The notes: a model not told the origin generated them from the sequence alone. Counted from the stretch's first letter, positions 1 through 23,987 are shown. The stretch is DNA of 62,259 nucleotides from a virus (IMGVR_UViG_3300025127_007337:1-62259), one strand, 5' to 3'. Numbers and translations are program-made.

Positions 1-2
1 TT

Positions 3-875
3 GGGCTACCAAAAGTAGATGATAACGTCACAAAGTGGCTTGCACCTGAGTGGCTCGACACAGCCTGTAAAAAACCAGTTGTCTTATTCCTCGATGAGGT
101 AGACAGAGCCACACTTGAAGTCCGACAAGGTATCTTCGAGTTGTGTGATAGTCGCAAGATTGCAGGTCACACACTACACCCTGATACACTTATCTTTGCT
201 TGTGTCAACGGTGGTCAGCACGGATCAGAGTATCAAGTCAATGAGTTCGATCCAGCCGAACTTGACCGTTATACTGTCTTTGATGTCGAGCCTACCGTAG
301 AAGATTGGTTGTCTTGGGCTGAGGGTAACGTCTGTGGCGAGATTTGGGATTTCATCAATCACAACCACAACCATCTTGAACACAAAGATACTTACGAGCC
401 TAACAAGATTTATCCATCAAGACGTAGTTGGGAGAGATTATCCAATGCTCTCGATAAGGTCGGCTCTGTCAAGCACGGCACGACATTGTATCACTTGGCT
501 CACGCATTTATCGGCTTTGAGGGTGCTATGGCTTTCAATGACTATGTGAAAAACTATTGCAAAGTTGTTACTCCAGAGGATATACTCGACAAGGGCAACA
601 TTAAGTTGACTAAGAAGTTCAAGATTAACGACCATAACAGTCTTATCGAGAAGTTCAAGGCTAAGAAGTGTTTCGATAACAAGTTAGAACCTAGTCAGTT
701 GCAAAATCTTGCTGAGTATTTCACAACACTTCCCTCAGAGATTGCTATGACCTTGTGGCAAGCGATGGGATCAGGTGAACAGGCTACTCATAACGTGGCT
801 CAGTTGCACGGTCTACAGACCAAAGAGGGTTCTGTGCAAGACTTTATCGTCAAAATCCTCACAGCAGGGCAATAA
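3..875 (+). CDS. MoxR-like AAA+ ATPase (5'-truncated by window edge)
   Basis: The frame is open from base 3: ...PVVLFLDEVDRATLEVRQGIFEL (Walker B), FACVN (sensor 1), DPAELDRY (Arg finger), PSRRSWERL. These motifs are typical of MoxR/DUF2201-associated ATPases. Confidence 0.85.
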   Translation, partial: GLPKVDDNVTKWLAPEWLDTACKKPVVLFLDEVDRATLEVRQGIFELCDSRKIAGHTLHPDTLIFACVNGGQHGSEYQVNEFDPAELDRYTVFDVEPTVEDWLSWAEGNVCGEIWDFINHNHNHLEHKDTYEPNKIYPSRRSWERLSNALDKVGSVKHGTTLYHLAHAFIGFEGAMAFNDYVKNYCKVVTPEDILDKGNIKLTKKFKINDHNSLIEKFKAKKCFDNKLEPSQLQNLAEYFTTLPSEIAMTLWQAMGSGEQATHNVAQLHGLQTKEGSVQDFIVKILTAGQ

Positions 876-887
876 GCCTGTGGGGTA

Positions 888-930
888 GGACAGAGAATCA
901 TTTCGGTCATTTTCTGTCCTTGCTTTTTTT
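888..930 (+). terminator. Possible intrinsic terminator that incorporates the first palindrome copy
   Basis: GGACAGAGAAT (888-898) can pair with ATTTTCTGTCC (909-919), followed by TTGCTTTTTTT. Confidence 0.5.
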
Positions 931-949
931 ACTCAATCGGTTATATTAT
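904..949 (+). promoter_or_regulatory. Palindrome copy 1 + sigma70-type promoter
   Basis: CGGTCA-TTTTC-TGTCCT abuts TTGCTT (920); GGTTATATTAT at 939-949; GGAGG RBS before ATG 973. Confidence 0.8.
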
Positions 950-972
950 ATACATCAACGGAGGACACAACA

Positions 973-1116
973 ATGTCAAATAAAAAAAAGCAACCTAAAA
1001 AACGTAATATAATACATCAAGTGCATATCGAACAGAACCGAAAGGCTGGCTCTCACAGAGATAAATCGAAATACACTAGGAAAAACAAACATAAAAAACA
1101 ACCACAGGAGGAATAA
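973..1116 (+). CDS. 47-aa basic protein with an ArfA-like tail
   Basis: Not in the ORF track. MSNKKKQPKKRNIIHQVHIEQNRKAGSHRDKSKYTRKNKHKKQPQEE; GGAGG RBS; stop overlaps the next ATG. Confidence 0.75.
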   Translation: MSNKKKQPKKRNIIHQVHIEQNRKAGSHRDKSKYTRKNKHKKQPQEE

Positions 1117-1430
1117 TGTTTGAAAATATAGACGAAATAGTTCTGTTGTCGAGGGAGAATGGCTATACATTCTTTGACAAAGAACGACAGGAACAACACA
1201 GAACTAGAGTACTACCCACACTCTATGGTGGTAAGTACTTCATAACACAGAGTCTGTACGATGGTAGACGTATGTACTCTATCTACAAGGCTCTAAAAGA
1301 TGGTGCTTGCGACATTGTTCGTGGTGAAGTCTTTCTATCAGAACGATCAGCACAGAGGTATCTAAAGATTGCTATACTACCCAACATTGTAGAAGACGAA
1401 ACAGAGGAGGTTTCTTATGAGTTACGCTAA
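1116..1430 (+). CDS. Hypothetical early protein
   Basis: AGGAGG RBS; coupled TAATG start. Confidence 0.75.
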   Translation: MFENIDEIVLLSRENGYTFFDKERQEQHRTRVLPTLYGGKYFITQSLYDGRRMYSIYKALKDGACDIVRGEVFLSERSAQRYLKIAILPNIVEDETEEVSYELR

Positions 1431-1866
1431 ACTATCAGAGCATTTTAAGGCTCGCACACCATACAAGTACAGTAAAGAGATACACTTCGATGGTACAAAG
1501 ATTGTCGCTAATGAGGTTAGATGGGCAAGAGACATAAACGGACGTTGGTTTCGTGAAACAGGTAAAGATCAAATCGTGCTTGCCGAGTATGTCCAACACA
1601 ACGGTAAAGAGTACGCAGTTGTCTACAATCGTGGTAACAAGTGTTTCGCCACAGAGGTTATGCAGTGGGGTTTCAATAGTAATTACAGGAGACATCGAGT
1701 TGGAAACCTCAAGTATGGCGAGGTTGGTAAGCCTGTCAAGGATCAACAACGTGCTTACAAGTGCCAAATGATTGATGCTTTGATTTATAGTGGTGTCATA
1801 TCCCACATTCTTATCCCCACCACACTAGATGGTGATAGCAAGTTCTTCGAGTTGGAGGGGATATAA
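1417..1866 (+). CDS. Hypothetical early protein
   Basis: GAGGAGG RBS; 149 aa. Confidence 0.75.
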   Translation: MSYAKLSEHFKARTPYKYSKEIHFDGTKIVANEVRWARDINGRWFRETGKDQIVLAEYVQHNGKEYAVVYNRGNKCFATEVMQWGFNSNYRRHRVGNLKYGEVGKPVKDQQRAYKCQMIDALIYSGVISHILIPTTLDGDSKFFELEGI

Positions 1867-1873
1867 ACAAACT

Positions 1874-1928
1874 TGGTCAAAAATTGTCCGTTTAAGGGTT
1901 GCATTATTCTGAGGATAAGTTATATTAT
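1874..1928 (+). promoter_or_regulatory. Palindrome copy 2 + sigma70-type promoter
   Basis: TGGTCA-AAAAT-TGTCCG, 8-bp gap, TTGCAT (1899), GTTATATTAT. Confidence 0.8.
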
Positions 1929-1957
1929 AAACATAATCGAAAACAACGAGGTCAACA

Positions 1958-2131
1958 ATGAGAATATACATCATAGAAGAATATAACCCATCTAACGAAC
2001 TAACAAGGTATTGGCTATTTGACGAACTTGAAAAGGCTTTAGACTTTGATGAGTTCTGTAAGGCACAACCGAAGTACAAAGATGGGTTCACCTATCAAGT
2101 CAACATTTCAGATCCCAACGACAGGAGATAA
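1958..2131 (+). CDS. 57-aa hypothetical early protein
   Basis: Not in the track. GAGGT RBS; MRIYIIEEYNPSNELTRYWLFDELEKALDF... Confidence 0.7.
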   Translation: MRIYIIEEYNPSNELTRYWLFDELEKALDFDEFCKAQPKYKDGFTYQVNISDPNDRR

Positions 2132-2132
2132 A

Positions 2133-2306
2133 ATGAAAACAGGTGACTTATTCAGATTCATAGATACATACGATGTACATAACATTGGTGTCGGCTCTAT
2201 CGGACTTATTGTAGGTATATTAGAACAACCCGATGGACACTACTATGTCCTTATTAACGGTAGGAACTACACACTACCAAAATACCACATAGAGGAGGTC
2301 AAATGA
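2133..2306 (+). CDS. Small SH3/KOW-like hypothetical protein
   Basis: AGGAG RBS favours ATG 2133; MKTGDLFRF...GLIVGI pattern. Confidence 0.65.
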   Translation: MKTGDLFRFIDTYDVHNIGVGSIGLIVGILEQPDGHYYVLINGRNYTLPKYHIEEVK

Positions 2307-2521
2307 ACATAGGAGACTTGGTAACGTGGAACTTGGACGTGTATGATAATAACACTCCTTTGGAGATTGGTGTGGTGGTCGGAGATCACACAACATTCAA
2401 AAGAAGAAAGAAGTGTGTGTGGGTAAAGTTCATCAATGGTCAACACTCTCATAGGACAAAGACCTTGTGTAGAGAGAGTCAACTTGTCCTTGTGGAGGAC
2501 ATAAAACAAAAACGGACATAA
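2303..2521 (+). CDS. Small SH3/KOW-like hypothetical protein
   Basis: GAGGAGG RBS; MNIGDLVTW...IGVVV...VWVKF pattern resembles the preceding ORF. Confidence 0.7.
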   Translation: MNIGDLVTWNLDVYDNNTPLEIGVVVGDHTTFKRRKKCVWVKFINGQHSHRTKTLCRESQLVLVEDIKQKRT

Positions 2522-2558
2522 TTTGTCCTTGCATTATTTCATCAATCGGTTATATTAT
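2513..2558 (+). promoter_or_regulatory. Palindrome copy 3 + sigma70-type promoter
   Basis: CGGACA-TAATT-TGTCCT abuts TTGCAT (2529); GGTTATATTAT. Confidence 0.8.
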
Positions 2559-2586
2559 ATACATCACTGAAACAAAGGAGGTCATT

Positions 2587-2784
2587 ATGACAACATATTT
2601 ATTCATACTACACACACCATCATCAAAGATATGTCGCTATGCTGGAGAGCAAAGAGAAATAGAGTTCACAGGCACAAGGAATGAGTTATTTCAACACATT
2701 CGTTATATGGCAAGAACATACGAAAGACTTGTTGGAATAAAAGTTAAACAAGGAGATCAATGGGTGAGTGAGGGCGATTTATAA
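2587..2784 (+). CDS. Hypothetical early protein
   Basis: AAGGAGG RBS downstream of the promoter. Confidence 0.75.
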   Translation: MTTYLFILHTPSSKICRYAGEQREIEFTGTRNELFQHIRYMARTYERLVGIKVKQGDQWVSEGDL

Positions 2785-2787
2785 AGT

Positions 2788-2841
2788 CGGACAAAATCTG
2801 ACCGATAATCATTTGACAAGTAGTCGAGAACCCATTATAAT
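2788..2841 (+). promoter_or_regulatory. Palindrome copy 4 + consensus sigma70 promoter
   Basis: CGGACA-AAATC-TGACCG, 8-bp gap, TTGACA (2813)-17 bp-TATAAT (2836). Confidence 0.9.
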
Positions 2842-2865
2842 ATAAATATACAACAGGAGAACACA

Positions 2866-3357
2866 ATGGAATATACATCAACAATAGCAAATATGTTATT
2901 TAACCCAAACCATATAAACTATCAGGATACTTGCTATCGCACAGATTATCTTTCTTATAGACTTTTAGACGATACTCTTTATAGTTTTACTTCTGTATGG
3001 TGTAGAGACTTTAGGAACTACCTACAAACAAACGGTATCGTTGTACCTGATGACAAACGTATGTATACACCTGTGGCAAAACTTGAGGGTGGAGAGCTTA
3101 TAGGCTATAACACACAATATGCCAATATGGGTAACAAGTTCTTGGATATGAGGGATGATACAAGAGAGATACACTTCCCAAATCTTTACTTTGTAGAGGT
3201 AGGCAATCACCCATATCCAAAGGAGGCTCGGTATCACCACTCTTGGTTGATAGAGAACTATCATCGTGAGTGTCACAAGATACTCAATCCACCCTCAGAT
3301 CCAACAAAGTTCTTTCTACAACCAACTTCATTTGCACCTACACTACGATCCTCGTAG
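2866..3357 (+). CDS. Hypothetical early protein
   Basis: AGGAG RBS; 163 aa. Confidence 0.75.
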   Translation: MEYTSTIANMLFNPNHINYQDTCYRTDYLSYRLLDDTLYSFTSVWCRDFRNYLQTNGIVVPDDKRMYTPVAKLEGGELIGYNTQYANMGNKFLDMRDDTREIHFPNLYFVEVGNHPYPKEARYHHSWLIENYHRECHKILNPPSDPTKFFLQPTSFAPTLRSS

Positions 3358-3537
3358 ATCCCTCTATACTACCCCTCTACCCTAGTACCCCTATGGGCTA
3401 TCTAAAACACTGTCTATGCGTAAATACAAGCCTGTATGCACTAGGAATACAAGTAACACTATAACAAATACGGAGGTGACTATGTTCACACCTGACACAC
3501 AACCTATAACTAGCACTAACACAAAGGAAACACCCAA

Positions 3538-3828
3538 ATGCAACAAAATAAACTCAACTTTTTCACAGTCAACTCCCTTTATCAGGCGATTGCTATCATT
3601 GAAGATAATGATTTTCCTGATGGTGTTGATCTCTATGATGCAAACGTACTTGCTTTTCAGTATCTCATCGACACAGGACACGCATGGACGTTACAAGGAT
3701 GGTACGGACGTACAGCAAGAAGTCTCATCGAAGAGGGTATCTGTAAACCCAAAAAGACGATTGGGACTCCCTCTCAAAGCACCAACAAAGGTATACCTTA
3801 CAAAACCAAAGTTAAAAAAACCCTCTAA
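3538..3828 (+). CDS. Conserved phage hypothetical protein ([23 protein letters not shown] family)
   Basis: Motif recurrent in phage early proteins; AAGGA RBS. Confidence 0.75.
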
Positions 3829-3961
3829 AAAGCCTGTGAGTAAGCCAAAACCTAAGACTAAAAAAAAAGTAAGGTAAGCACACGCAAGAAACGTACACGC
3901 ACGAGGACACGCACAAAAAAGTTAAACTCACCTAGAACACATCGACTCTCAGGTATCTAAA

Positions 3962-3987
3962 ACCCCAACTTGTTGGGTGTTTTTTTT
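3962..3987 (+). terminator. Intrinsic terminator
   Basis: CCCAA-CTTG-TTGGG stem followed by a T-run. Confidence 0.65.
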
Positions 3988-4028
3988 GTGTTCAAAATAC
4001 TTGACAATACTATAGTAAGAATGCAAGT

Positions 4029-4081
4029 CGGACATTTTTTGTCCAACAAGGATTTGACAGGATCTCCAAATCGGTTATATT
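4029..4081 (+). promoter_or_regulatory. Palindrome copy 5 + sigma70-type promoter
   Basis: CGGACA-TTTTT-TGTCCA, 8-bp gap, TTGACA (4054), GGTTATATT. Confidence 0.85.
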
Positions 4082-4112
4082 ACTAACATCACCAACAACA
4101 ACGAGGTAAACA

Positions 4113-4274
4113 ATGACCGAAGATGAAATAAGAGATATAGCGATAAGGATTGTCGATCAGATGGTATCTGAGGGGATCATTCCTGATTGTACAGACACTA
4201 ACAACTCTATAGAGTTCGAGACACAGGACATAATTGTTGAACAACTAGAAAAGGTTCTCAGGGGGCAACAATGA
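4113..4274 (+). CDS. 53-aa acidic hypothetical protein
   Basis: Not in the track. GAGGT RBS; MTEDEIRDIAIRIVDQMVSEGIIPDCTDT... Confidence 0.7.
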   Translation: MTEDEIRDIAIRIVDQMVSEGIIPDCTDTNNSIEFETQDIIVEQLEKVLRGQQ

Positions 4275-4420
4275 TATTTGAAATCGCTTTTATTCTTGTC
4301 GCTATCGGTATCTTCTCATTCACTTGGGCTATACTCGAAATCCTAGCACTCAATATATATATTGGTAGATACCAAAAACCAAATCGGTCAAAAACTGTCC
4401 AAAAACGATTTGACAGATAA
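4271..4420 (+). CDS. 49-aa single-pass membrane peptide
   Basis: ATGA overlap with the previous stop; MIFEIAFILVAIGIFSFTWAILEILAL followed by a basic tail. Confidence 0.55.
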   Translation: MIFEIAFILVAIGIFSFTWAILEILALNIYIGRYQKPNRSKTVQKRFDR

Positions 4421-4440
4421 ACTAAAAACAGTTATATTAT
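4385..4440 (+). promoter_or_regulatory. Palindrome copy 6 + sigma70-type promoter
   Basis: CGGTCA-AAAAC-TGTCCA, 8-bp gap, TTGACA (4410)-17 bp-TATATT. Confidence 0.85.
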
Positions 4441-4467
4441 AAACACATTCAACAACAGGAGAAAACT

Positions 4468-4635
4468 ATGAATGAGTACAAGCACCTTTCCAACCTACAA
4501 GTTATCGCACTGTATAAGAGTGCAAAGGCATCTGTCAAGGACTTATCGCCCCTTATGGCGACAAATGATAGGCTCTATCTACAACGTCAACTGGACACAC
4601 TACGAAACGAAGTCCACAGACGGCTCAATAAATAA
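4468..4635 (+). CDS. 55-aa hypothetical protein
   Basis: AGGAG RBS fits ATG 4468 (MNEYKHLSNLQVIALYK...) better than the track ORF at 4472; its stop is just before the next palindrome. Confidence 0.7.
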   Translation: MNEYKHLSNLQVIALYKSAKASVKDLSPLMATNDRLYLQRQLDTLRNEVHRRLNK

Positions 4636-4638
4636 AAA

Positions 4639-4684
4639 CGGACATTTTTTGTCCTTGCACATTTTCCCAAACCAGTTATATTAT
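4639..4684 (+). promoter_or_regulatory. Palindrome copy 7 + sigma70-type promoter
   Basis: CGGACA-TTTTT-TGTCCT abuts TTGCAC (4655); GTTATATTAT. Confidence 0.8.
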
Positions 4685-4710
4685 AAATACATTCTAACAA
4701 CGAGGTCACT

Positions 4711-4962
4711 ATGACACTAGAACAAATAATCAAAGCCTTTCTTAACTATACTCAAGACGTTAAAGGTCGCTATGGTCTATCCATTCGAGATGGTGCTTTA
4801 TACTCTTACAATCTCAAGATTGCTGAACACGGTGGTGCAGGCTCTTACATCGTCTATGACTATATGGCAACAGGTTGTCGTGGAATGGTATCGGCTACAA
4901 CGTCAAAGCACGTTGGTATGATTAAAAGAGCCGTTCCTCAGAACAGACTTGTCTTGATGTAG
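4711..4962 (+). CDS. Conserved phage hypothetical protein (LYSY..IA...S.TTSKH type)
   Basis: GAGGT RBS; motif typical of phage early proteins. Confidence 0.75.
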   Translation: MTLEQIIKAFLNYTQDVKGRYGLSIRDGALYSYNLKIAEHGGAGSYIVYDYMATGCRGMVSATTSKHVGMIKRAVPQNRLVLM

Positions 4963-5015
4963 TTCCCTACTACCTACTACCGTACCCCCTTACCCCCCTT
5001 ACTCACGAGGTTATT

Positions 5016-5285
5016 ATGAAATACTCTAAAAAACAAAAATCTTTATCTCAACCTGTCATCGACTTATTGTCCCGTATGAGCAAGTTAGTTGATCAAGGTC
5101 TCACACCTATCGAAGCTGTCGAGTGGATGCAAGAGATTGAACCACAATGGCGATGTTCACGAGGTTATCAAGCAACTAAGGGAGGTCTTATACAGGCTCG
5201 CAAGAGACTTGAGAGACGTGTTGAAATGATGAACCAAGTCAACAATGGTGTCACAGTCTTTACTAACAACAAACCAACTAAATAA
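5016..5285 (+). CDS. Hypothetical early protein
   Basis: GAGGT RBS; 89 aa. Confidence 0.7.
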   Translation: MKYSKKQKSLSQPVIDLLSRMSKLVDQGLTPIEAVEWMQEIEPQWRCSRGYQATKGGLIQARKRLERRVEMMNQVNNGVTVFTNNKPTK

Positions 5286-5295
5286 GGAGGTCACT

Positions 5296-5487
5296 ATGCC
5301 AGAACTTACAGAGATACAAGGAAAACTTAACGTAGATGGGCTTATATGCTCACTAGCAATAAACCAAGCCATACAGGAGATTCAACAGTACCAAGAACAA
5401 GACGATGTAGAGGGCGAACTAGCGATAGCCGTATTAGAGAATATGCTCTTTGCCCTTGTAGACGCTCTAGAACCCATAGAGGAATAA
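5296..5487 (+). CDS. 63-aa acidic hypothetical protein
   Basis: AAGGAGGT RBS fits ATG 5296. Confidence 0.7.
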   Translation: MPELTEIQGKLNVDGLICSLAINQAIQEIQQYQEQDDVEGELAIAVLENMLFALVDALEPIEE

Positions 5488-5532
5488 CACACAGATAACA
5501 ATGCCCTAACAGAGGACATTCCACAATCAACC

Positions 5533-5581
5533 CCACCACGACAAAGGAATAGAGGAGACTTCCTTGTGGTGGGTTTTTTTT
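5533..5581 (+). terminator. Long hairpin + T-run (terminator, possibly the 3' end of a small RNA)
   Basis: CCCACCAC...AAGG / CCTT.GTGGTGGG followed by TTTTTTTT. Confidence 0.65.
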
Positions 5582-5643
5582 GTGTATACAATACTTGACA
5601 AAACTATACACACGTTTTCACGCGTGACACTTCCAAAGGAAGT

Positions 5644-5706
5644 CGGTCATTTTCTGTCCAAAAATGCTTTGCTCGGATTGAATAAACGGTTATATTAAAC
5701 GTCTAA
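5644..5706 (+). promoter_or_regulatory. Palindrome copy 8 + nested sigma70-type and ECF-type promoters
   Basis: CGGTCA-TTTTC-TGTCCA, 8-bp gap, TTGCTC..TATATT; also TGAATA (5679)-15 bp-CGTCTAA (5700). Confidence 0.75.
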
Positions 5707-5729
5707 TAAGCACAACCAACGAGGTAACT

Positions 5730-5882
5730 ATGAAAATCGAAAGTAAAGCAATAATCCAACGTCGTATCCGTAACATTGAGCAAGATATTAAATCATGTCG
5801 TAATAGTGGTAACACTTTGCGTATGAGATTACTATATGCACAGTTGTCGGCAGCGACGATAAAGTTGGCTAGTTCTAAATAA
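5730..5882 (+). CDS. 50-aa basic hypothetical protein
   Basis: Not in the track. GAGGT RBS; MKIESKAIIQRRIRNIEQDIKSCR...; stop abuts the next palindrome. Confidence 0.7.
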   Translation: MKIESKAIIQRRIRNIEQDIKSCRNSGNTLRMRLLYAQLSAATIKLASSK

Positions 5883-5935
5883 CGGACATTTTCTGTCCGT
5901 TTCAAAATGAATAAATCCAAATAATAAACGTCTAA
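5883..5935 (+). promoter_or_regulatory. Palindrome copy 9 + ECF-type promoter
   Basis: Perfect arms CGGACA-TTTTC-TGTCCG, 8-bp gap, TGAATA (5908)-15 bp-CGTCTAA (5929). Confidence 0.7.
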
Positions 5936-5961
5936 CTAGTACACTTCAACCGAGAGGAAAT

Positions 5962-6552
5962 ATGAAAAACTTCACTATCCAAATAGCACCCATTCGAGCC
6001 CCTTATATGCGAGAGAGACAGGACGCTGTTCCTACAGTTTGCAAAAAGTATGTCAATGGAAAGGTCGAGTATCACGAGTTCCGTTGGAATAATCCAAAGG
6101 CTGGTCGTAATATTATGTGGAAAGATAACCCCGACACCATCGAGGAAAGAGAACAGTATAAGCAACAGTTTGCTGATAGAGTGCAACGTGCGTTTGATAA
6201 AGCCAACATCCGTTTCTTTAAGCACTACGACGGCATTAACTTTGAGGACGAAATAGTGCGTGTCTATGCACCTTATCCAGACCTTGCACCTAATGCGACT
6301 GTCACCGTATACTCTCAACGTGTCCACGAATACAACGCACATCGCGACTTTTTAAGAGACATAGTATCTAAGATGAACATTCAGTTTAACACTCTTATGT
6401 GTGTCCTCCAACAGGGCAAATATGACCTAGCCAAAGGCTCCCTCTACAAGCTAAACAAGTATATGTTTGATTTGCAATCAATGTGTAGACCCCAACATCA
6501 CGAAGTAGTTTTCAAGGGCAAGAATAACCCTCTCACAGCCAACCTAAGATAG
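5962..6552 (+). CDS. Hypothetical early protein
   Basis: GAGAGG RBS; 196 aa. Confidence 0.8.
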   Translation: MKNFTIQIAPIRAPYMRERQDAVPTVCKKYVNGKVEYHEFRWNNPKAGRNIMWKDNPDTIEEREQYKQQFADRVQRAFDKANIRFFKHYDGINFEDEIVRVYAPYPDLAPNATVTVYSQRVHEYNAHRDFLRDIVSKMNIQFNTLMCVLQQGKYDLAKGSLYKLNKYMFDLQSMCRPQHHEVVFKGKNNPLTANLR

Positions 6553-6553
6553 A

Positions 6554-6606
6554 CGGTCATTTTCTGTCCGTTTTAGACATCCAAATCATCTTTTTTATGT
6601 TATAAT
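6554..6606 (+). promoter_or_regulatory. Palindrome copy 10 + extended -10 promoter
   Basis: CGGTCA-TTTTC-TGTCCG; TGTTATAAT at 6598-6606. Confidence 0.75.
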
Positions 6607-6631
6607 ATAAGAGTATTCAATCAAAGGAGTT

Positions 6632-6994
6632 ATGAATATGAATAAAAAATCCAAAGAACTTAATAAGCAAATGAGCAAGGCTGTGAGGGACTCACATCAA
6701 CGTATGCTCGACCAAGCCCTCAATCAGAGGGTAGAAGTCACAGACCCTGTAAAGTTACGTGAGATGTATCCTGATTTTACCGATAAGCAAATAGCGAGTA
6801 TGGCGAGACTAAATCACAAGATTAACGTAGCCAACGACTTCCTCATAGAGGAACAATACTTCTGGCTCAATCCATCTGAAAGACCTGTCGAGGGTATCGA
6901 GTATGACGAGGAACTTTGGGCTACCACTTCTTATGATGAAGATAAAGAACTTGCAATCATAAGAGAGGAACAGAGAGACATAGATAATGAATAG
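6632..6994 (+). CDS. Hypothetical early protein with acidic C-terminus
   Basis: AAGGAG RBS; 120 aa. Confidence 0.75.
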   Translation: MNMNKKSKELNKQMSKAVRDSHQRMLDQALNQRVEVTDPVKLREMYPDFTDKQIASMARLNHKINVANDFLIEEQYFWLNPSERPVEGIEYDEELWATTSYDEDKELAIIREEQRDIDNE

Positions 6995-7044
6995 GTCATT
7001 TTTTGTCCGTTTTTACAGAATTTTTATAAAGAATAATCGTCTAA
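6993..7044 (+). promoter_or_regulatory. Palindrome copy 11 + ECF-type promoter
   Basis: AGGTCA-TTTTT-TGTCCG; AGAATT (7017)-15 bp-CGTCTAA (7038). Confidence 0.65.
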
Positions 7045-7073
7045 TAAATACATTACAACACAAGGAGTTTTTA

Positions 7074-7142
7074 ATGTTCACAATCTTTTCAATCTTTGCT
7101 ATTATGTTCTTTTCACTTTTTATCCTCACAGCCCTCATATAA
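7074..7142 (+). CDS. 22-aa fully hydrophobic peptide
   Basis: AAGGAG RBS right after the promoter; MFTIFSIFAIMFFSLFILTALI. Confidence 0.55.
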   Translation: MFTIFSIFAIMFFSLFILTALI

Positions 7143-7191
7143 TAATCACTCTTTTTAACCCCTTTATCACTTACTTTACTCGGAGGTCTTT

Positions 7192-7374
7192 ATGACTCAA
7201 ATCACATTTCAAGAATGGCTATCTTCTCAACCCTCTCCATTACCACGTTATCAAATCGTTGAATCAATCAAGTTTTATGGATACTTCGATGTTCTCGACA
7301 CTCACACAGGAAAACGTGAACCTTGTCGAAATCTTCGAACTGCTCGTGCTACTGTTAAGGCTCTTAACAAGTAG
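7192..7374 (+). CDS. Hypothetical early protein
   Basis: GGAGGT RBS; 60 aa. Confidence 0.7.
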   Translation: MTQITFQEWLSSQPSPLPRYQIVESIKFYGYFDVLDTHTGKREPCRNLRTARATVKALNK

Positions 7375-7426
7375 TCAACTTCTTCCTCTCTCACCTTACT
7401 ATTCTATTACTCCAAAGGAGTCCACT

Positions 7427-7714
7427 ATGACTAATACAAGATATAACTTTCAAATCCTTTCCTTTATCACAGACTTATGTGAGAACATTAGTGAAACTGT
7501 CGTGACAGACGATGGAGATGATGGAGAAATGACAACCTTTTATTTTCACAATCCTGTCACTGGTTCGATTGACACCGTTTCATTCTTTGAGGACTACGAC
7601 ACTCACCCAATCATTTACTTGCCAAACTACTCCGTAGGTCAGAAGTCTTTTAAAGACCAAGTAGAGATTGCCGACCTTGAGGAACTTTACGAGTTCATTC
7701 TTATTGAAGAATAA
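7427..7714 (+). CDS. Strongly acidic hypothetical protein
   Basis: AAGGAG RBS fits ATG 7427; D/E-rich. Confidence 0.7.
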   Translation: MTNTRYNFQILSFITDLCENISETVVTDDGDDGEMTTFYFHNPVTGSIDTVSFFEDYDTHPIIYLPNYSVGQKSFKDQVEIADLEELYEFILIEE

Positions 7715-7715
7715 T

Positions 7716-7769
7716 CGGTCATTTATTGACCGACTCGCTATTGCTACCCCCCTCCATCTATGATACAAT
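7716..7769 (+). promoter_or_regulatory. Palindrome copy 12 + sigma70-type promoter
   Basis: Perfect arms CGGTCA-TTTAT-TGACCG, 8-bp gap, TTGCTA (7741)-17 bp-TACAAT with extended TG. Confidence 0.85.
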
Positions 7770-7798
7770 AATAGTACATTCTAACAACGAGGTTTTTT

Positions 7799-8125
7799 AT
7801 GAATGACAATAACCCAATCTTTAACTCTGTCTCTGTGGCTCTTAGCCACTTCCGTGCTATCCCTGTCTTTGACATCAATGTTGACTGTCTCTCTGATGTT
7901 GTCGAGCATCACCGTTATGATGGTCACCCTGATGAGGAGTGTAACTATGAGTCCTGTATGAGAGGAGACTTGGAGTGCTTACTTGATACCGTCACAATGG
8001 TTCAAGAACGAGCCGAAGAACTCTCCATCCTAATGATGGAGTCTATGACGTGGGAAGCACGTTACCTAGCCGCTCATACTGAGTACCACGCACTCTTTGA
8101 GAAGTATGGTTCAAAGTCTAAGTAG
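7799..8125 (+). CDS. Acidic hypothetical protein
   Basis: GAGGT RBS; last gene before the terminator. Confidence 0.75.
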   Translation: MNDNNPIFNSVSVALSHFRAIPVFDINVDCLSDVVEHHRYDGHPDEECNYESCMRGDLECLLDTVTMVQERAEELSILMMESMTWEARYLAAHTEYHALFEKYGSKSK

Positions 8126-8151
8126 ACTTAACCTTTTAGTTTGTTCCCTCA

Positions 8152-8181
8152 AGACCGATGTTTATTCATCGGTTTTTTTTT
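8152..8181 (+). terminator. Intrinsic terminator closing the early array
   Basis: ACCGATG-TTTATT-CATCGGT followed by a T-run. Confidence 0.85.
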
Positions 8182-8342
8182 GTTCTGTTGTAGTCGCTGT
8201 TGTTGACCCCCTCCCCCTACCCATACCATCCAAATAAGTCCGACGGTAACGGCGTTTGCGAGCAGCTCGCGCTAGGTACATTATATACCCACAGCAAATT
8301 TCCGAGATTTAAGTCCAAGTCGATAAGTCATTATCCGATACT

Positions 8343-8492
8343 TTATTTATGAGTTGGAAACCTGCCTTGGTTTCCCATACCGTCATAATCAATCATATCA
8401 TGGTCTTGCACATACTCATTGATTCGTTTCTGGTGGTTTTTTGTTTCTTTCTTTATTATGAATCCAAACAATTTTTTTAGAAAATTAATCAT
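8343..8492 (-). CDS. 49-aa hypothetical protein
   Basis: Not in the track. AAGGAG RBS; MINFLKKLFG...DYDGMGNQGRFPTHK. Confidence 0.6.
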   Translation of the reverse strand: MINFLKKLFGFIIKKETKNHQKRINEYVQDHDMIDYDGMGNQGRFPTHK

Positions 8493-8532
8493 ACAATTTC
8501 TCCTTTATAATTTAAATATCACCCCATATTGT

Positions 8533-8763
8533 TCACAAGTCATCTTCGTATTCGTACCAAGAGATAGTTTTCCAGCTTCTTTCATCTGTGGACCGCTCGA
8601 CATAGTCTACAGCTGCTTTTAAACTAGTAAATTTTGTAAATATTCGTTCGCCATTTCCTAAGAATACAACAATAGAGTTTTGTGATCTAGCTATATGTGT
8701 TATGCGTTGTGGGTTTACAGCAACCGTTTCGCCAACTTGGTTTTGTATTGTAATAAATTTCAT
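8533..8763 (-). CDS. FlbD-like small beta protein
   Basis: MKFITI...VAVNPQRITHI...VFLGNGE pattern; GGGAGG RBS; has its own promoter. Confidence 0.65.
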   Translation of the reverse strand: MKFITIQNQVGETVAVNPQRITHIARSQNSIVVFLGNGERIFTKFTSLKAAVDYVERSTDERSWKTISWYEYEDDL

Positions 8764-8793
8764 GCAATCCTCCCAGATTTTATTAGTACTTAT

Positions 8794-8822
8794 AGTATAA
8801 CACGCTTTCTATATACTGTCAA
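8794..8822 (-). promoter_or_regulatory. sigma70 promoter (leftward)
   Basis: Reverse strand TTGACA-17 bp-TATACT with CGTGT extension. Confidence 0.8.
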
Positions 8823-8875
8823 GTCGATAGTCAAAAAAATTGCAAAAAAATTTTCCTAGATTTAACAATACAAAA

Positions 8876-8883
8876 ACTAATTA
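8876..8883 (+). promoter_or_regulatory. Putative late promoter motif ACTAATTA
   Basis: Same motif as before other presumed virion genes; 7 nt upstream of ATG 8891. Confidence 0.55.
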
Positions 8884-8890
8884 CAGCATT

Positions 8891-9799
8891 ATGAAACTTA
8901 CAAAAAATAAATTATATCAGCTCATACAAGAAGCCATGGAAGAAAAACAATACGGAAAAGATTTTCAAAGTTTTTTGCAAATTCCAATTAGAACTTACAT
9001 GGACGAAGAAGATATGCTTGATATTGGTTATCTAGAAATGCACGTTGGTCCTAAACTAGGTTCAGGCTATTCCCGAATGGTATTTGAAATAAACGATACT
9101 CAAGTTGCAAAAATCGCGTATCGTCATCCTGAAACATTAGAAATGAATTCTTTCAATGAAGGCTGTCAGTCAAACCGCATGGAGTACCTAAAGTTTAATA
9201 AATATCCTCACATATTTCCTAAGTCCTACGGTATATTTAAAGAAGATTCAGTCCTAGTTGTCGAAAAAGTAACAGTAATCGAAGAACAAGATCATATGGA
9301 TAGAGTTTTAAGAAATGCTTATCCATCTCTTGTCGAGGGCTCCCTATATCTTATAAACCAAGGGTATAGCCGCATTAATCCTTCTTGGGTTTTTGAAAGA
9401 ATTCTTGACACATGGGACGAAGTTATAGGAGATGCTTCTCCTGTGCGTCGTGATGAATTTGATGTTATGATGCAAACAAGAAGAACTACTGATATTAATT
9501 CTGAACAATTAGAAACCCTTTGGAATATAGTCACAAAAGACACCAAACTAATGAATTGGGTGTCAACTCTTAGACAAATGGGAGTTGAATTTGACGAACT
9601 TCGTGTTGGTAATGTTGGGACCAATTCTCAAGATAACAAACTAATTCTTATTGATATATCAAAATTTGATTTTAATTCTGGTACTGAGGTTGAGGAAAAA
9701 AAATCTTCCGTTAGTTCTTATGATCATCGTATAAAGAATATGGAAGTGGATCCTGAACTAGAAAGAGTACAACCATTTGTTTATAGGAGGAGAAACTAA
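8891..9799 (+). CDS. Protein-kinase-like fold protein with putative capsid-targeting leader
   Basis: LGSGYSRMVF (Gly loop), VAKIA (Lys), NRME (helix-C Glu), DELRVGNVG (catalytic loop), LILID; N-terminus MKLTKNKLYQLIQEA. Confidence 0.65.
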   Translation: MKLTKNKLYQLIQEAMEEKQYGKDFQSFLQIPIRTYMDEEDMLDIGYLEMHVGPKLGSGYSRMVFEINDTQVAKIAYRHPETLEMNSFNEGCQSNRMEYLKFNKYPHIFPKSYGIFKEDSVLVVEKVTVIEEQDHMDRVLRNAYPSLVEGSLYLINQGYSRINPSWVFERILDTWDEVIGDASPVRRDEFDVMMQTRRTTDINSEQLETLWNIVTKDTKLMNWVSTLRQMGVEFDELRVGNVGTNSQDNKLILIDISKFDFNSGTEVEEKKSSVSSYDHRIKNMEVDPELERVQPFVYRRRN

Positions 9800-9966
9800 T
9801 GTCTTATGACGTAAGATGGGAATCTATAAAAGCTTATAAAAGAATGATTGAGTATTTTAAGAAGCAAATTGCGAAACTAGAGAGACAAATTTTTACCGAG
9901 CGGTGCTGTCAACCTAAAGGAAGAATTTACCTACCAATCATTAACAAGCGAAGAATAACTAAATAA
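9799..9966 (+). CDS. 55-aa hypothetical protein
   Basis: Not in the track. AGGAGGAG RBS; TAATG coupling. Confidence 0.6.
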   Translation: MSYDVRWESIKAYKRMIEYFKKQIAKLERQIFTERCCQPKGRIYLPIINKRRITK

Positions 9967-10012
9967 AGCCTCTAATTACTATTGTAGTATGTTGACATAG
10001 GAAGGTGATTTT

Positions 10013-10570
10013 ATGCTGCTTAATTTGCTTTTATGGGGCTGCGATAGCCCAATACCAAGTGACACTTCAAAGCCAAAAGAGGAAATTGCTGAATCTCCCA
10101 TACATTGGACCGAGTGTTCGTATAACGGAGGAGATCATATTTGTGATGTTACTTTACCAACTGCTGATGGTGGATTTGATAACTTTTATTCTCATTATGG
10201 TGAAGTAATTGTTATTGATGTTTCTGCAATGTGGTGTGGTCCTTGTCAAGAAGCTGCTTGGAACTCTAACTCAATAAATGTTACTGCTGATGGTGTTACC
10301 TGGATCACTGTTTTGATTGAAAATCTTGATGGCGAAACTCCAACTGAAGAAGACGGACAGTTTTGGGGAGATTATTTTGGAATATGGCACAATGAAATTT
10401 GGCTTGGCTCTTCAGAAAACAGAGATTATGAAGGGATTACTGGTTTTGCTAATACTGGGTGGCCTTACTTTCTTATTCTTGACAAGGATCTTCGCATTCG
10501 TGTCGTCCAACAGGGATGGAATAAGGAACAAATTTTACAACACATTGCCGATTTGAAATCTGAGTTATAG
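10013..10570 (+). CDS. TlpA/redoxin-like thioredoxin-fold lipoprotein
   Basis: WCGPC active site; GWPYFLILD cis-Pro region; lipobox-like MLLNLLLWGC. Confidence 0.8.
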   Translation: MLLNLLLWGCDSPIPSDTSKPKEEIAESPIHWTECSYNGGDHICDVTLPTADGGFDNFYSHYGEVIVIDVSAMWCGPCQEAAWNSNSINVTADGVTWITVLIENLDGETPTEEDGQFWGDYFGIWHNEIWLGSSENRDYEGITGFANTGWPYFLILDKDLRIRVVQQGWNKEQILQHIADLKSEL

Positions 10571-10596
10571 TTATTGAAAAGGCGGAGGGTATATGT

Positions 10597-11577
10597 ATGC
10601 TTTTATTTTTAATCTCTTGTTTATCTGATCATTATTTAACAAACAAAGTTATAGAGGAACGAATCTTGTATGACACAGCTTACGTCGAAGTTATCGTAGA
10701 AGTTGAAAAAGAAGTAGAAGTAGAGGTTGAGGTAGAAGTCGAAGTTGAGGTAGAAGTTGAAGTACCAGAAAATTATCCGCTTTGGTCTCAAACTTACATC
10801 CAACCATCTCTTGGAAATGGTGTTGATATACTTTGGGTTGTTGATCCATCAGGATCGATGATGAATAACTGGGCTCAAGTTGTTCTTGGCGTTGAACAAA
10901 TGATGTTGGCTTTGCCAACAAATGTTAATTGGCGTTTAGAAATTATTCCAACAGATCAAGTTAGGGCTGTAAACTTACAATCTTTTCCTATACTCCCTGG
11001 TGATTCTTTACAAACAGCACAAGACCATTTACAGAATAATGTTCAAGGTCATTGGGAAAAAGGTATGGATGCTGTTAAGGCCTATATGACACAAAATTTA
11101 GATGCCTTACAATGGATGAGACCTAACGTTGCTCTTTTAATTATTTTTGTGTCTGATGAGAATGATTCATCAAGCCAGACTTCTTCTCAATTTATTCAAT
11201 GGGTACAATATCAAAGAACAGAAGTATATGTTACTTCAATTGTTAATGTAGATATAGCAAACTCTTTGTGTCCGAACTCTTATACTCATTTACACGTAGG
11301 TTCTGATTATATGGATGTTGCTAACTACTTTAGTGGTATAGTTATTGATATCTGTGAAACTGATTGGACCTCCGGTGTTACCCAAGCAGCTCAACAAGTC
11401 CACCTTATAGATGAAATACTATTGGATCATACACCAGTTGACATAGATCATATTGAAGTTTTAGTTGATAATGTTGTGTGGACTGACTGGTCATGGGATC
11501 AAGCAAATAATAAAATAATTTTTTCTCTTATGCCACCTGAAGGAAGTATCATAACTGTTTCTTATAACTATTTATAA
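10597..11577 (+). CDS. VWA-domain lipoprotein with (EV)n stalk
   Basis: VDILWVVDPSGSM (MIDAS DxSxS), IIFVSDEND, very short signal MLLFLISC. Confidence 0.8.
   Translation: MLLFLISCLSDHYLTNKVIEERILYDTAYVEVIVEVEKEVEVEVEVEVEVEVEVEVPENYPLWSQTYIQPSLGNGVDILWVVDPSGSMMNNWAQVVLGVEQMMLALPTNVNWRLEIIPTDQVRAVNLQSFPILPGDSLQTAQDHLQNNVQGHWEKGMDAVKAYMTQNLDALQWMRPNVALLIIFVSDENDSSSQTSSQFIQWVQYQRTEVYVTSIVNVDIANSLCPNSYTHLHVGSDYMDVANYFSGIVIDICETDWTSGVTQAAQQVHLIDEILLDHTPVDIDHIEVLVDNVVWTDWSWDQANNKIIFSLMPPEGSIITVSYNYL
10684..10764 (+). repeat. (Glu-Val)n coding hexamer repeat
   Basis: GARGTN tandem units encode EVEVEVEV... Confidence 0.9.
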
Positions 11578-11581
11578 CGTT

Positions 11582-12343
11582 ATGAAAATTAGAATAAAAA
11601 GAAATTCACAAAACTCTTCTGAATTAGAAGAAAAAAAGAAACGTAGAAAAAGACGCAACAAAGGTGGAAAGTGTCAAAAAGGATATAAGACCCACCCTAC
11701 AAGAAAAAAGAAAAAAATGTTTGGTAAACAATATCGCAATTGTGTTAAAGCTGAAGGTAAAATGTCTAAGTCTTATTGTGAAAACACACCATGCGATGAA
11801 ATGGGTTTTTCTCAAAGAGCATCTTGTGCAAAGTATAAAAAATGCCCTTCACCAAAAAAAAATGAACAGATACAAGAAAGAGAATTGACTCCTCCTGAAT
11901 ACGAAAAGAAAAAAGAAATAGTAAAGGCAATGAAAAAAGACAAGCCAGGTATGTCAGATAAAGATATTTATCCAATTGCTACAGCAACTGCTAAACGAGT
12001 GGCAGAAAGAAAAAAGCGAGATCCAAAAAAAGGAACTGGTAAAAAACCAAAAGGATCTGGTCGAAGATTGTATACAGATGAAGACCCAAGCGACACAGTA
12101 TCAGTTAGTTTTAAGTCTGTCTCTGCAATACAGAAAACATTATCTAAAAAAAGTTTTAAGTCTAAGAGTCACAAACGACAATCGCAAATAATTAATTTAA
12201 TACACCAAAGATCTAGAGCAGCATACAAAAATGCAAAAGATCCAAAAGTAAAAGCAAGATTAAAAAAGGCATTTGATTACGCTAAAAAACGTAAAGAAGC
12301 TTCAAAGAAAAAAACTATTCGAATGAGGAAAAATAAAAAATGA
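11582..12343 (+). CDS. Lys/Arg-rich modular protein, probably virion-internal
   Basis: Modules CQKGY..NCVK, Cys-rich GFSQRASC and KGTGKKPKGSGRRLYTDE; ACTATTTA 7 nt upstream. Confidence 0.75.
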   Translation: MKIRIKRNSQNSSELEEKKKRRKRRNKGGKCQKGYKTHPTRKKKKMFGKQYRNCVKAEGKMSKSYCENTPCDEMGFSQRASCAKYKKCPSPKKNEQIQERELTPPEYEKKKEIVKAMKKDKPGMSDKDIYPIATATAKRVAERKKRDPKKGTGKKPKGSGRRLYTDEDPSDTVSVSFKSVSAIQKTLSKKSFKSKSHKRQSQIINLIHQRSRAAYKNAKDPKVKARLKKAFDYAKKRKEASKKKTIRMRKNKK

Positions 12344-12927
12344 CAAAAGAAGAATTAGAAGAAAAAAAGAAACGTAGAAAAAAACGTAAAAAACGTAAAG
12401 TAAAAAAGAAAAAAGGTAAACGTGATGCTTGTTATCATAAAATAAAAAGAACAGCTAAAGTTTGGCCTTCAGCTTATGCATCCGGTAGACTTGTTCAGTG
12501 TAGAAAAGTTGGAGCTGCAAATTATGGCAATAAATCAAAAAAGAAAAACGAATCCTTGAATGAAGACTTTAAGCCTCATATGATGTATGATCCAAAAACT
12601 GGAAAATCAGAAAAAGCTAATGAAGAAGAAGATCATCACAGATTAGCTAAAAAAGGCTATACTCACATAGATCCTGAAGGAGTAAGAGATGTTATTGGTG
12701 ATGGTGAGGGTGGAGCTTCTGGACCTGATCCACTTTTGAAAAAGTTTGGTAAAGAAATGGAAGATGAAATTATGAAAACTTTGAAAGCCATGCCTGATAT
12801 TGGTCAGCACAAAGATGGTGATTATATCATGGATGATGATAAAGAAATACAAGTGCAAAAAGAAGAACAACTTCTCAAGAAAAAGATAAGAATTAGAATA
12901 AAAAAATCTAAGAGGAAGTCTACATGA
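12340..12927 (+). CDS. Lys-rich modular protein (DACYHK..VWPSAYASG.LV.CRK module)
   Basis: Module familiar from marine myoviruses (DUF5872-like); HMMYDPKTGK module. Confidence 0.75.
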   Translation: MTKEELEEKKKRRKKRKKRKVKKKKGKRDACYHKIKRTAKVWPSAYASGRLVQCRKVGAANYGNKSKKKNESLNEDFKPHMMYDPKTGKSEKANEEEDHHRLAKKGYTHIDPEGVRDVIGDGEGGASGPDPLLKKFGKEMEDEIMKTLKAMPDIGQHKDGDYIMDDDKEIQVQKEEQLLKKKIRIRIKKSKRKST

Positions 12928-13715
12928 CCAACACTGATCTAGAACCAGAGATTCTTGAAGAAAAAAAGAAACGCAAAAAGAAACGCAAAGGTGGCAAACG
13001 TGATGGTAAAGGTGCCAGCAGCAAAGGCTATTCTTTACGTGACTGGTTTAAAGGTGGTGGCTGGGTGCAAGCTGGTGGTAAGTATGATGGTAAGCCATGT
13101 GCGAAACAACCAGGTCAAAAAACAAAACCTTACTGTAGAGATCCTGATGATCGTGCCAAAATGAGTAAAAAAGAAAGAGACAAGAGAGCTCGAAAAAAGC
13201 GTAAGGAAGATCCGAATCCTGATAGAAGAGGTAAAGCAAAAAATGTTAGACAAAAGAAAAGAAAAACTAAAAAGAAAAACGAATCAATGGAGAATACAAT
13301 GGAAGCATTAAGATATTATGGAGATCCAACAATTCTAGAAACCTTTAGAGGTGCATCTTTAGATGATGGTACTTTGGTTTGTGAAGCTTGTTTGTTTGAA
13401 CAACTACAAGAAGCATCTTGTGGGTGCCCTGACTTGGTTATGGAAGCTGAATACAAAGGTAGAAAAGTAAAATTAAACAAACCAATGCGTGGAGATGTAA
13501 AGAAATTTAAAGTTTTTGTTAAAGACCCTAAGACTGGTAATATTAAAAAAGTTAATTTTGGTCATGGAGGTACTAGTGCTAAGAAAAAAGGTGAGAAAAC
13601 CATGAAGATTAAAAAATCTAATCCAAAACGTAGAAAATCTTTTAGAGCTAGACATAACTGCAAGAATCCAGGTCCTAAAACTAAAGCTAGATACTGGTCT
13701 TGTAAGAAATGGTAA
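12924..13715 (+). CDS. Lys-rich modular protein (AEYKGRKVKLNKP...RRKSFRARHNC..ARYWSC module)
   Basis: DUF6321-like C-terminal module plus LRDWFK..WV module. Confidence 0.78.
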   Translation: MTNTDLEPEILEEKKKRKKKRKGGKRDGKGASSKGYSLRDWFKGGGWVQAGGKYDGKPCAKQPGQKTKPYCRDPDDRAKMSKKERDKRARKKRKEDPNPDRRGKAKNVRQKKRKTKKKNESMENTMEALRYYGDPTILETFRGASLDDGTLVCEACLFEQLQEASCGCPDLVMEAEYKGRKVKLNKPMRGDVKKFKVFVKDPKTGNIKKVNFGHGGTSAKKKGEKTMKIKKSNPKRRKSFRARHNCKNPGPKTKARYWSCKKW

Positions 13716-13804
13716 TACATTTAATATATTCCAGCTGTATAATGTATTAATATATTATTATAAATAAAGAAAATATATAAAAGAAAAAAATTATATAAAA
13801 ACAT

Positions 13805-13833
13805 TTGACAAATCCTCCTTAAGATGTTATACT
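13805..13833 (+). promoter_or_regulatory. sigma70 promoter (rightward)
   Basis: TTGACA-17 bp-TATACT with extended TG. Confidence 0.75.
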
Positions 13834-13882
13834 GATTTTACAGTTACTAATTAAATTGATAATCCTCCCAGATTATATTAAT

Positions 13883-13911
13883 ATTATAACATAGGATAAA
13901 TATAATGTCAA
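13883..13911 (-). promoter_or_regulatory. sigma70 promoter (leftward, convergent)
   Basis: Reverse strand TTGACA-17 bp-TATAAT with extended TG; overlaps ATG 13905. Confidence 0.65.
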
Positions 13912-14975: not shown

Positions 14976-14980
14976 AATCA

Positions 14981-15325: not shown

Positions 15326-15326
15326 A

Positions 15327-15452
15327 ATGGAATTATTACTACAAAAAGTTGCTTTATACGCTATTTTAAGTTTATTTTGGCTTATTTTTTACCATTTTAT
15401 TGGTTTTGAGGTCTCTGTAATCTTAATTTTACTAATTATTATGATAAAATGA
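15327..15452 (+). CDS. 41-aa membrane peptide
   Basis: Not in the track. Fills the gap; MELLLQKVALYAILSLFWLIFYHFIGFEVSVILILLIIMIK. Confidence 0.55.
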   Translation: MELLLQKVALYAILSLFWLIFYHFIGFEVSVILILLIIMIK

Positions 15453-15461
15453 GGGTAAATC

Positions 15462-23986: not shown

Positions 23987-23987
23987 A

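Follow-up and report, generated by a model that had tools for sequence, protein, structure and literature searches.

The DNA considered here is the whole of the IMG/VR virus record IMGVR_UViG_3300025127_007337, a stretch of 62,259 bases (the window), which is classed as linear and has a CheckV completeness of 20%. Its first 8250 positions lack nearly all of the short palindromes of restriction-site type that are abundant in the remaining sequence and, as judged by comparison with related contigs, they are the downstream part of a ~18 kb module conserved in a clade of uncultured marine myoviruses whose genomes measure ~190 kb. The features at the locus, in window positions, are as follows.

1 to 8190, + strand: the 3' part of the restriction-site-purged, predicted early gene module; the full module occupies 9470-27937 in the related record G001.
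3 to 875, + strand: the C-terminal 290 amino acids of a MoxR/AAA_5-type ATPase, open at its 5' end; the sole module open reading frame (ORF) of the window with a family match.
973 to 8125, + strand: 22 small ORFs of 47-196 amino acids with GGAGG-type ribosome-binding sites and without a family match.
904 to 7731, no strand assigned: 12 copies of a 16-nucleotide (nt) palindromic site, CGGWCA-N5-TGWCC, of which there are none in 8251-62259.
2813 to 2841, + strand: a predicted sigma70-type promoter, TTGACA-17-TATAAT, matching the consensus at 12 of 12 positions; further ones start at 920, 1899, 2529, 4054 and 4410.
8151 to 8186, + strand: a predicted intrinsic terminator that closes the module and is kept in G001 and in a second relative, G002.
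8205 to 8310, no strand assigned: a conserved non-coding block of ~110 nt at the right border, present in the window, G001 and G002.
8343 to 8492 and 8533 to 8763, - strand: two small ORFs, the first features past the module, with ordinary site density and a near-consensus promoter at 8822-8794.

All plausible genes in 1-8250 lie on the + strand, and the small ORFs include very acidic ones at 4113-4274, 5296-5487, 7316-7714 and 7799-8125. In G001 the ATPase gene is preceded, just upstream, by that of a DUF2201/VWA-like partner. None of ten module ORFs matched Pfam, and a PHROGs scan of 20 module ORFs of the window (three small ones lay outside it) found a family for the ATPase alone; in the G001 module only the DUF2201 protein and the ATPase matched families, most of its ~60 ORFs lying outside the scan. 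No match was found by megablast of 1-8250 or 8251-20000 against a phage collection, no tRNA gene was found in the window, and Rfam gave no match in 1-12000 with E up to 1. The ATPase query, however, found eight related loci in viral contigs, and the records compared below are G001 (114 kb), G002, G003 and G004 (a 191 kb record rated 100% complete). The module of each relative was delimited by the stretch over which the 16-nt site occurs, and the remainder of that record served as the control.

The initial annotation had described 1-8250 as free of GGCC, CCGG, GCGC, CCWGG and GGWCC, and counting bears this out: each is absent there, against 36, 19, 14, 29 and 42 copies, respectively, in 8251-62259. 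AATT, which it had called scarce, occurs 5 times inside the region and 523 times outside, and two motifs that it had not listed, AGCT (3 versus 224) and CATG (2 versus 124), behave in the same way. For these eight motifs, which are the set scored throughout, there are 10 sites in 1-8250 and 1011 in the other 54 kb, where one is met per ~53 bp. Expected counts were taken from a maximal-order Markov background, by which 1-8250 should hold 32.5 AATT, 22.5 AGCT, 27.2 CATG, 9.6 GGCC, 5.7 CCGG and 2.4 GCGC. The observed/expected comparison thus confirms a depletion limited to the region, and one that is both stronger and broader than had been noted. The six most under-represented 4-mers of the region are all palindromes, whereas the 15 most strongly under-represented elsewhere in the window include none. 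The loss also extends to 6-base palindromes that contain none of the avoided 4-mers, with observed/expected ratios of 0.48-0.49 in the window module versus 0.95-0.96 outside it, and of 0.57 versus 0.97 in G001. Some non-palindromes (GAATC/GATTC, CCTTC/GAAGG and GAGGC/GCCTC) are low in the region as well. The edge is sharp: the eight-motif sites stop at 7019 and resume only at 8264, just past the terminator at 8151-8186. Further on, the first sites fall where they had been placed (GGWCC at 8590, GGCC at 10461, CCGG at 11372), with GCGC at 8269, one base from the 8268 given.

The region also differs from its surroundings in composition, as had been claimed. Its GC content is 40.0% against 32.9% outside, its GC content at third codon positions is 0.41 against 0.225, and AAG, AAC and ATC are enriched. 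Such a shift might suggest that the sites were lost because selection acted on the translation or the RNA of highly expressed early genes, by way of codon bias or mRNA structure. Two-fold codons ending in C, a trait of highly expressed genes in many bacteria, are indeed enriched in the module. The proposal was confronted with 500 shuffles of synonymous codons among the 23 ORFs (6867 nt) of 1-8250, in which the proteins and the region's codon usage were kept. AATT was observed 3 times in these ORFs against 33.9 +/- 4.5 in the shuffles, AGCT 3 times against 25.6, CATG twice against 17.6 and GGCC not at all against 8.6, and none of the 500 shuffles was as low for any of the four. GCGC, CCWGG, GGWCC and CCGG, all absent, averaged 5.3, 4.0, 3.9 and 3.2, with 2, 1, 5 and 18 shuffles as low, whilst the control words TCGA, ACGT, TGCA, CTAG and TATA stood at expectation. 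Since shuffles with the module's own codon usage restore the sites, their loss is not an effect of codon usage. Moreover, the palindromic nature of the avoided words indicates recognition of double-stranded DNA, and the G002 module has a GC content near that of its flanks (37.5% versus 36.2%) and yet is without GGCC (0 observed for 12 expected), CCGG (0 for 9) and GGWCC (0 for 13). Translational or RNA-level selection is therefore contradicted and is very improbable as the source of the pattern. The direction of cause may rather be the reverse, the raised GC content and the AAG/AAC/ATC-rich codons being largely a side effect of losing AATT, GANTC and other A/T-rich sites; we infer this because the G002 module, which keeps AATT (and also CATG), nearly matches its flanks in GC.

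How the sites were lost can be followed in the ATPase gene. Over 873 nt, the counts of AATT/AGCT/CATG are 0/0/0 in the window, 0/2/3 in G001, 8/8/1 in G002, 5/1/4 in G003 and 2/9/5 in G004. In the alignment, single-base differences fall on the sites, as where AGTT stands for AATT, or where the window has CACG and four relatives read CATG. Read from this alignment, the depletion arose through silent substitutions.

The second distinguishing feature of the module is the 16-nt palindromic site. Its copies start at 904, 1874, 2513, 2788, 4029, 4385, 4639, 5644, 5883, 6554, 6993 and 7716, which amounts to 24 strand-matches where shuffled sequence gives 0.96 on average. Every copy lies shortly after a stop codon and either abuts a -35 box or is placed 9-10 nt upstream of one, and in 11 of the 12 the next start codon follows 53-70 nt past the site. 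The site is conserved even where the ATPases of relatives share only 72% identity, and is absent elsewhere in those genomes. An RNA or DNA hairpin, or a terminator, was considered and rejected, since the W positions are non-complementary in 7 of the 12 copies; complementarity in the other 5 is at the chance level. This lack of base-pair covariation makes the site most likely a putative operator for a dimeric protein, and it looks as if one regulator may act over the whole module.

The strong promoters for host RNA polymerase that the initial annotation expected do appear as predictions: most of the small genes lie behind consensus-like promoters, nearly all of which have the 16-nt site close upstream of the -35 box, and predicted promoters on the + strand reach 7-9 times the density seen elsewhere (0.73 sigma70-type matches per kb versus 0.11 outside it in the window, and 0.80 versus 0.09 in G001). 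These repeated units seem also to be points of exchange. Contigs of co-occurring strains fuse different promoter cassettes, with junctions such as 4655>2538, 4655>1908, 7013>7768 and 7793>5971. As these fused contigs read, the module is a hypervariable array of cassettes that recombines or loses genes at its promoter/operator units, and it is probably because the cassettes recombine that assemblies break inside it.

The extent of the module is best seen in the relatives. There the 16-nt site keeps to a single block of ~18 kb, at 9488-27091 of the 114 kb of G001 and at 6777-24945 of the 191 kb of G004, and is likewise confined in G002 and G003. In G001 this span coincides with a site-poor stretch of ~9470-27937, which has 4-15 sites per 2 kb against 28-52 in the sequence of normal density on both sides. 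Inside are ~60 small ORFs, the DUF2201/VWA-like protein and the ATPase; to the left lie ordinary late-type genes for a ClpP-like protease, an amidase, GroEL and a trypsin-like protease. To the right of the module, a VWA protein of the window (10597-11577) has a match on the G001 contig, which is also an ATPase contig. The notion that position 1 is a genome end did not survive this comparison, for the window starts within the ATPase gene and the depleted block of G001 extends ~10 kb further left. Because the G001 module continues leftward, the window holds only the last 8.2 kb of the module, and position 1 is an assembly break. At the left border in G001, the first module ORF (L013 9324-9668) changes composition midway, and the change falls precisely on a copy of the 16-nt site: the 5' half is AATT-rich and the 3' half module-like. 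This looks like a recombination joint.

At the right border, the non-coding block contains a C-rich stretch (rich in G on the opposite strand), a near-palindrome of high GC content at 8258-8270 and a 36-mer that is conserved, and it is within this block, at 8264 and 8269, that the first restriction-type sites return. Its counterparts are L014 7882-7987 in G001 and L029 10577-10688, on the minus strand, in G002, and it can be aligned in the three records while the adjoining sequence cannot. RNAalifold on the three sequences gave a structure without informative covariation, and the block has no Rfam match. Its possible roles include a small RNA, an insulator and a DNA element, for example one that stops entry or serves in packaging. 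The abrupt shift of composition at a single point, in a window that begins inside a gene, is also what would be produced by an assembly chimera in which two unrelated phages had been fused near 8250. However, the same junction, with its border block, occurs in the separate contigs G001 and G002, with which the window is collinear across the border (nucleotide identity to G001 is 70-80% within the module and 80-87% outside), and a unitig of run X1, which may be the source sample, spans it (7383-8314). On these comparisons the junction is real, and the chimera is contradicted and can be set aside with hardly any reserve. The depths of eight pieces from X1 (7.8, 20.5, 24 and 22.7 in the module, 12.2-16.8 outside) cannot be read as copy number, and nothing is drawn from them.

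The set of avoided motifs changes from lineage to lineage. G001 repeats the set of the window, with observed/expected ratios of 0.38 for AATT, 0.37 for AGCT and 0.28 for CATG, and with no GGCC, CCGG or GGWCC for 20, 13 and 22 expected. G002, as given above, has lost the G/C-rich words and kept AATT and CATG. The G003 module has 6 AGCT for 29 expected, 4 GGCC for 18, and neither CCGG nor GGWCC for 15 and 20, and that of G004 has 10 GATC for 60, no CTAG for 21 and no GGWCC for 26. In two contigs that are almost wholly module, ACGT and CGCG join the avoided sets. Further module contigs were sought among the pattern matches listed for viral contigs, from which only loci with at least 4 degenerate 16-nt sites were taken (26 of 80); singletons among the exact-pattern matches are probably mostly due to chance and so were not used. 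Of 11 such contigs with at least 2.5 kb of module, among the matches listed, 10 have at least one palindrome at an observed/expected ratio of 0.25 or less; the avoided sets again differ, in contigs that hold no outside control.

These data bear on the proposal that the module is a compositional island, recombined in from a phage with genome-wide avoidance. Its GC content and codon usage do differ from the rest, and contigs of related strains show frequent recombination inside it. Yet the module lies at the same place in all relatives and aligns with them (at 70-80% nucleotide identity, against 80-87% for the flanks), and each of seven records has a motif set of its own, restricted to the module; AATT, AGCT or CATG is avoided genome-wide in no relative; and the depletion ends at terminator and promoter borders. 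An imported island is accordingly quite unlikely.

One word is common to all of the modules. GGWCC is absent from the module in 7 of 7 records (the window, G001-G004, L005 and L006), where 8 to 26 would be expected in each, and in all five records with flanks it has a normal frequency outside (47 observed for 52 expected in the rest of the G002 genome, 136 for 157 in that of G004). Its absence may reflect a universal host enzyme or interference with the putative operator. As a separate observation, GGWCC resembles the half-sites GGWCA/TGWCC of the 16-nt site.

That the avoided words are palindromic points to enzymes that recognise double-stranded DNA, and the lineage-specific sets indicate host repertoires that change. 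The rest of the genome, at one site per ~53 bp, could not survive simultaneous exposure to such enzymes and would have to arrive later or be shielded. We consider it probable, though well short of assured, that the early module alone is exposed to host Type II restriction whilst the rest is protected or delivered later. The module would be the sole part of the genome to meet host Type II enzymes as naked, unprotected DNA, and it would have to remain intact until host RNA polymerase has transcribed it; the remainder would then arrive later, or be shielded by a product of the module. The most economical mechanism would be an ordered, staged delivery with the module first, as in T5, an early anti-restriction function acting after the module has entered. 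The initial annotation had proposed much the same. Its suggestion that the segment is exposed while the rest is protected fits the limitation of the depletion to the region and the normal site frequencies elsewhere, but no product that might protect the rest was recognised among the scanned ORFs.

Site loss in the module alone would be explained equally well if the module avoided the phage's own early nucleases, with short palindromic specificities, which would destroy host DNA while only the module is inside. Davison's proposal for the T5 protein A1 is of this kind (bioRxiv 10.1101/866236), and an HNH endonuclease gene is present in the window at 19628-20119, outside the module. However, at least 8 motif classes and a general loss of 6-base palindromes would demand many phage nucleases, and no scanned module ORF has a nuclease family match. 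Motif sets also differ among relatives with module ATPases that are 89-92% identical, for which changing hosts provide a better fit than a conserved phage enzyme. We regard self-avoidance as unlikely and note that it, too, requires ordered entry.

A further alternative is a region-specific modification. The bulk of the DNA would bear a protective hypermodification and the module would be left bare, for example so that it could be read by host RNA polymerase and by the operator-binding protein. No fixed genome ends are needed for this, which makes it compatible with a T4-type terminase, such as the apparent one of G004 described below. Sugar-handling enzymes are numerous in the rest of the window (two GT4 glycosyltransferases, a phosphomannomutase, a NUDIX protein and an AMP-binding enzyme), and in Flavobacterium phage immuto, a cultured but distant relative, dG is wholly replaced by a 7-deazaguanine derivative (PMC10516641). 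Against it, there is no known mechanism that exempts an 18 kb block, and the glycosyltransferases may serve cell or virion glycans. A search of 5 records, two of which are rated complete, found QueC (PF06508) and TGT/DpdA (PF01702) in none, although a very divergent DpdA could escape the search. Furthermore, AATT, which has no G or C, and GGCC, which has no A or T, are both unprotected in the module and tolerated elsewhere, so that the modification would have to affect two bases or more. A modification that spares the module is thus held to be improbable.

In the flank itself, a long run of enzyme-sized genes occupies 27295-47851 and includes the AMP-binding enzyme and the two GT4 glycosyltransferases, one of them labelled 'GT4-conflict'; upstream of it lie the phosphomannomutase (18482-19285) and the NUDIX protein (13905-14975). 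Together these look like a sugar or glycan pathway. A PIN-PhoH fusion protein of 445 amino acids (23988-25325) follows a 1035-amino-acid protein with a weak DnaJ-domain match (20879-23986).

Several observations weigh against exposure of the module alone to host restriction enzymes, and against its staged delivery. No scanned module ORF resembles a known anti-restriction protein, by Pfam or by PHROGs, and the case for early expression of the module comes from its predicted promoters only. The module is internal in every assembly, and the G004 contig behaves as a circular map, the left flank of G001 mapping to the right end of G004 and then to its left end. The ends of G004 (L019 1-276 and the last 284 nt of L028) share 284 nt at 87% identity, and G001 reads through that place; the break in the G004 assembly is probably due to a diverged repeat or a pair of paralogues, and not to a genome end. 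The large terminase (TerL) of G004, found by its Terminase_6N match (Terminase_6C gave no match in G001 or G004), most resembles the gp17 terminases of T4 type. Over 94% of its length it shows 32% identity to cyanophage gp17, and it is 47% identical to that of immuto and 44% identical to that of Microcystis phage Mel-JY01, both of them myoviruses. Headful packaging and permuted ends, with which the leading end is random, go with terminases of the T4 type. The apparently T4-type terminase of G004 therefore disfavours fixed genome ends. For headful packagers, avoidance in an early region should not matter (PMC12455610). Finally, some motifs are avoided genome-wide: G004 has 1 CCWGG in 191 kb, with ~141 expected outside the module, and G002 has no CCWGG, no GCGC and 1 CGCG, so that protection of the remaining genome is not universal. 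In the 20.9 kb examined of a further record, G005 (L009), AGCT is absent for 52 expected.

Thus, whilst exposure of the module alone is still the explanation that we prefer, its particular form is held more loosely. Staged entry with a terminally redundant module is possible, but we consider it doubtful. The joint picture is equally tentative: a marine clade of ~190 kb with a T4-type terminase would use staged delivery, with a terminally redundant module of ~18 kb entering first; that module would carry ~30 operator-controlled promoters and encode a broad Type II inhibitor, the border block would act as the entry stop, and the motif sets would record host repertoires.

The clade is apparently widespread in the sea. 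Avoidance of sites that depends on position, in the region first exposed, is already known, but the clade and the module-limited form seen here are apparently undescribed. In the literature searched, supplementary files excepted, the T5-like and Autographiviridae cases were the only ones found, and neither this clade nor module-limited avoidance in such phages was described. With ~10% of the genome purged of many palindromes of 4-6 bp, the module is a cleaner natural case than T5. If exposure of the module is the correct explanation, its consequences would be several. Sequence alone would offer a route to first-exposed anti-defence regions in metagenomic phages, which genome-wide statistics dilute or miss, and the small ORFans of the module would form a pool in which to seek broad Type II anti-restriction functions. 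The set avoided by each lineage would be a fingerprint of host restriction systems and could help to link phages to hosts. The clade would also provide a test of staged genome entry beyond Demerecviridae and Autographiviridae, in phages whose terminase would predict otherwise.

The closest known parallel is with T5 and BF23 (Tequintavirus). In T5-like phages, Type I and II restriction acts only via sites in the first-step-transfer (FST) region, the border of which is a long non-coding stretch, and the shielding of the remaining genome from Type II enzymes is described as still unexplained (PMC10644984). The module shares with these phages a block, ~8-10% of the genome, of small and mostly unannotated genes behind strong host-type promoters, in which sites are missing that are tolerated elsewhere. 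A long conserved non-coding stretch marks the inner border of the FST in the T5 annotation, as at the border of the module. In T5 (NC_005859), used as a control, the loss of palindromes is in the same direction, the 6-base observed/expected ratio being 0.70 in the FST versus 0.84 in the next 40 kb, and GAATTC occurring 0 times versus 3. The loss is stronger here (0.49 versus 0.70) and takes in many motifs of 4-5 bp. The proteins differ too: none of the 20 window module ORFs scanned matches a PHROG with a T5 pre-early function (A1, A2 or Dmp), and no homology was detected. The FST lies in a terminal repeat of ~10 kb, whereas the module is known from internal contig sequence alone. T5 is a siphovirus with two divergent operons, in contrast to a ~190 kb myovirus-type phage with an apparently T4-type terminase and many promoters that share one palindromic site.

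A second parallel is with the T7-like Murciavirus (Autographiviridae), where, according to PMC12455610 (2025), only sites in the early-injected region bring restriction, so that sensitivity is set by a first-entering, host-transcribed and hypervariable region alone. There, however, it is a matter of a single Type I motif, podoviruses of ~40 kb with known ends, and entry driven by transcription, unlike the many Type II-like palindromes and the large phage considered here.

In gene organisation, the module also recalls the host-takeover module of SPO1, in which about two dozen small early genes are clustered in a terminal redundancy of ~13 kb, each with a strong promoter and ribosome-binding site; the DNA of SPO1 contains hydroxymethyluracil throughout the genome. 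Genome-wide avoidance of restriction sites in phages has reportedly been described by Rusinov et al. in 2018, and there, as here, Type II palindromes would be selected against through silent changes. What sets the present module apart is that avoidance is confined to less than 10% of the genome, with borders sharp to ~100 bp.

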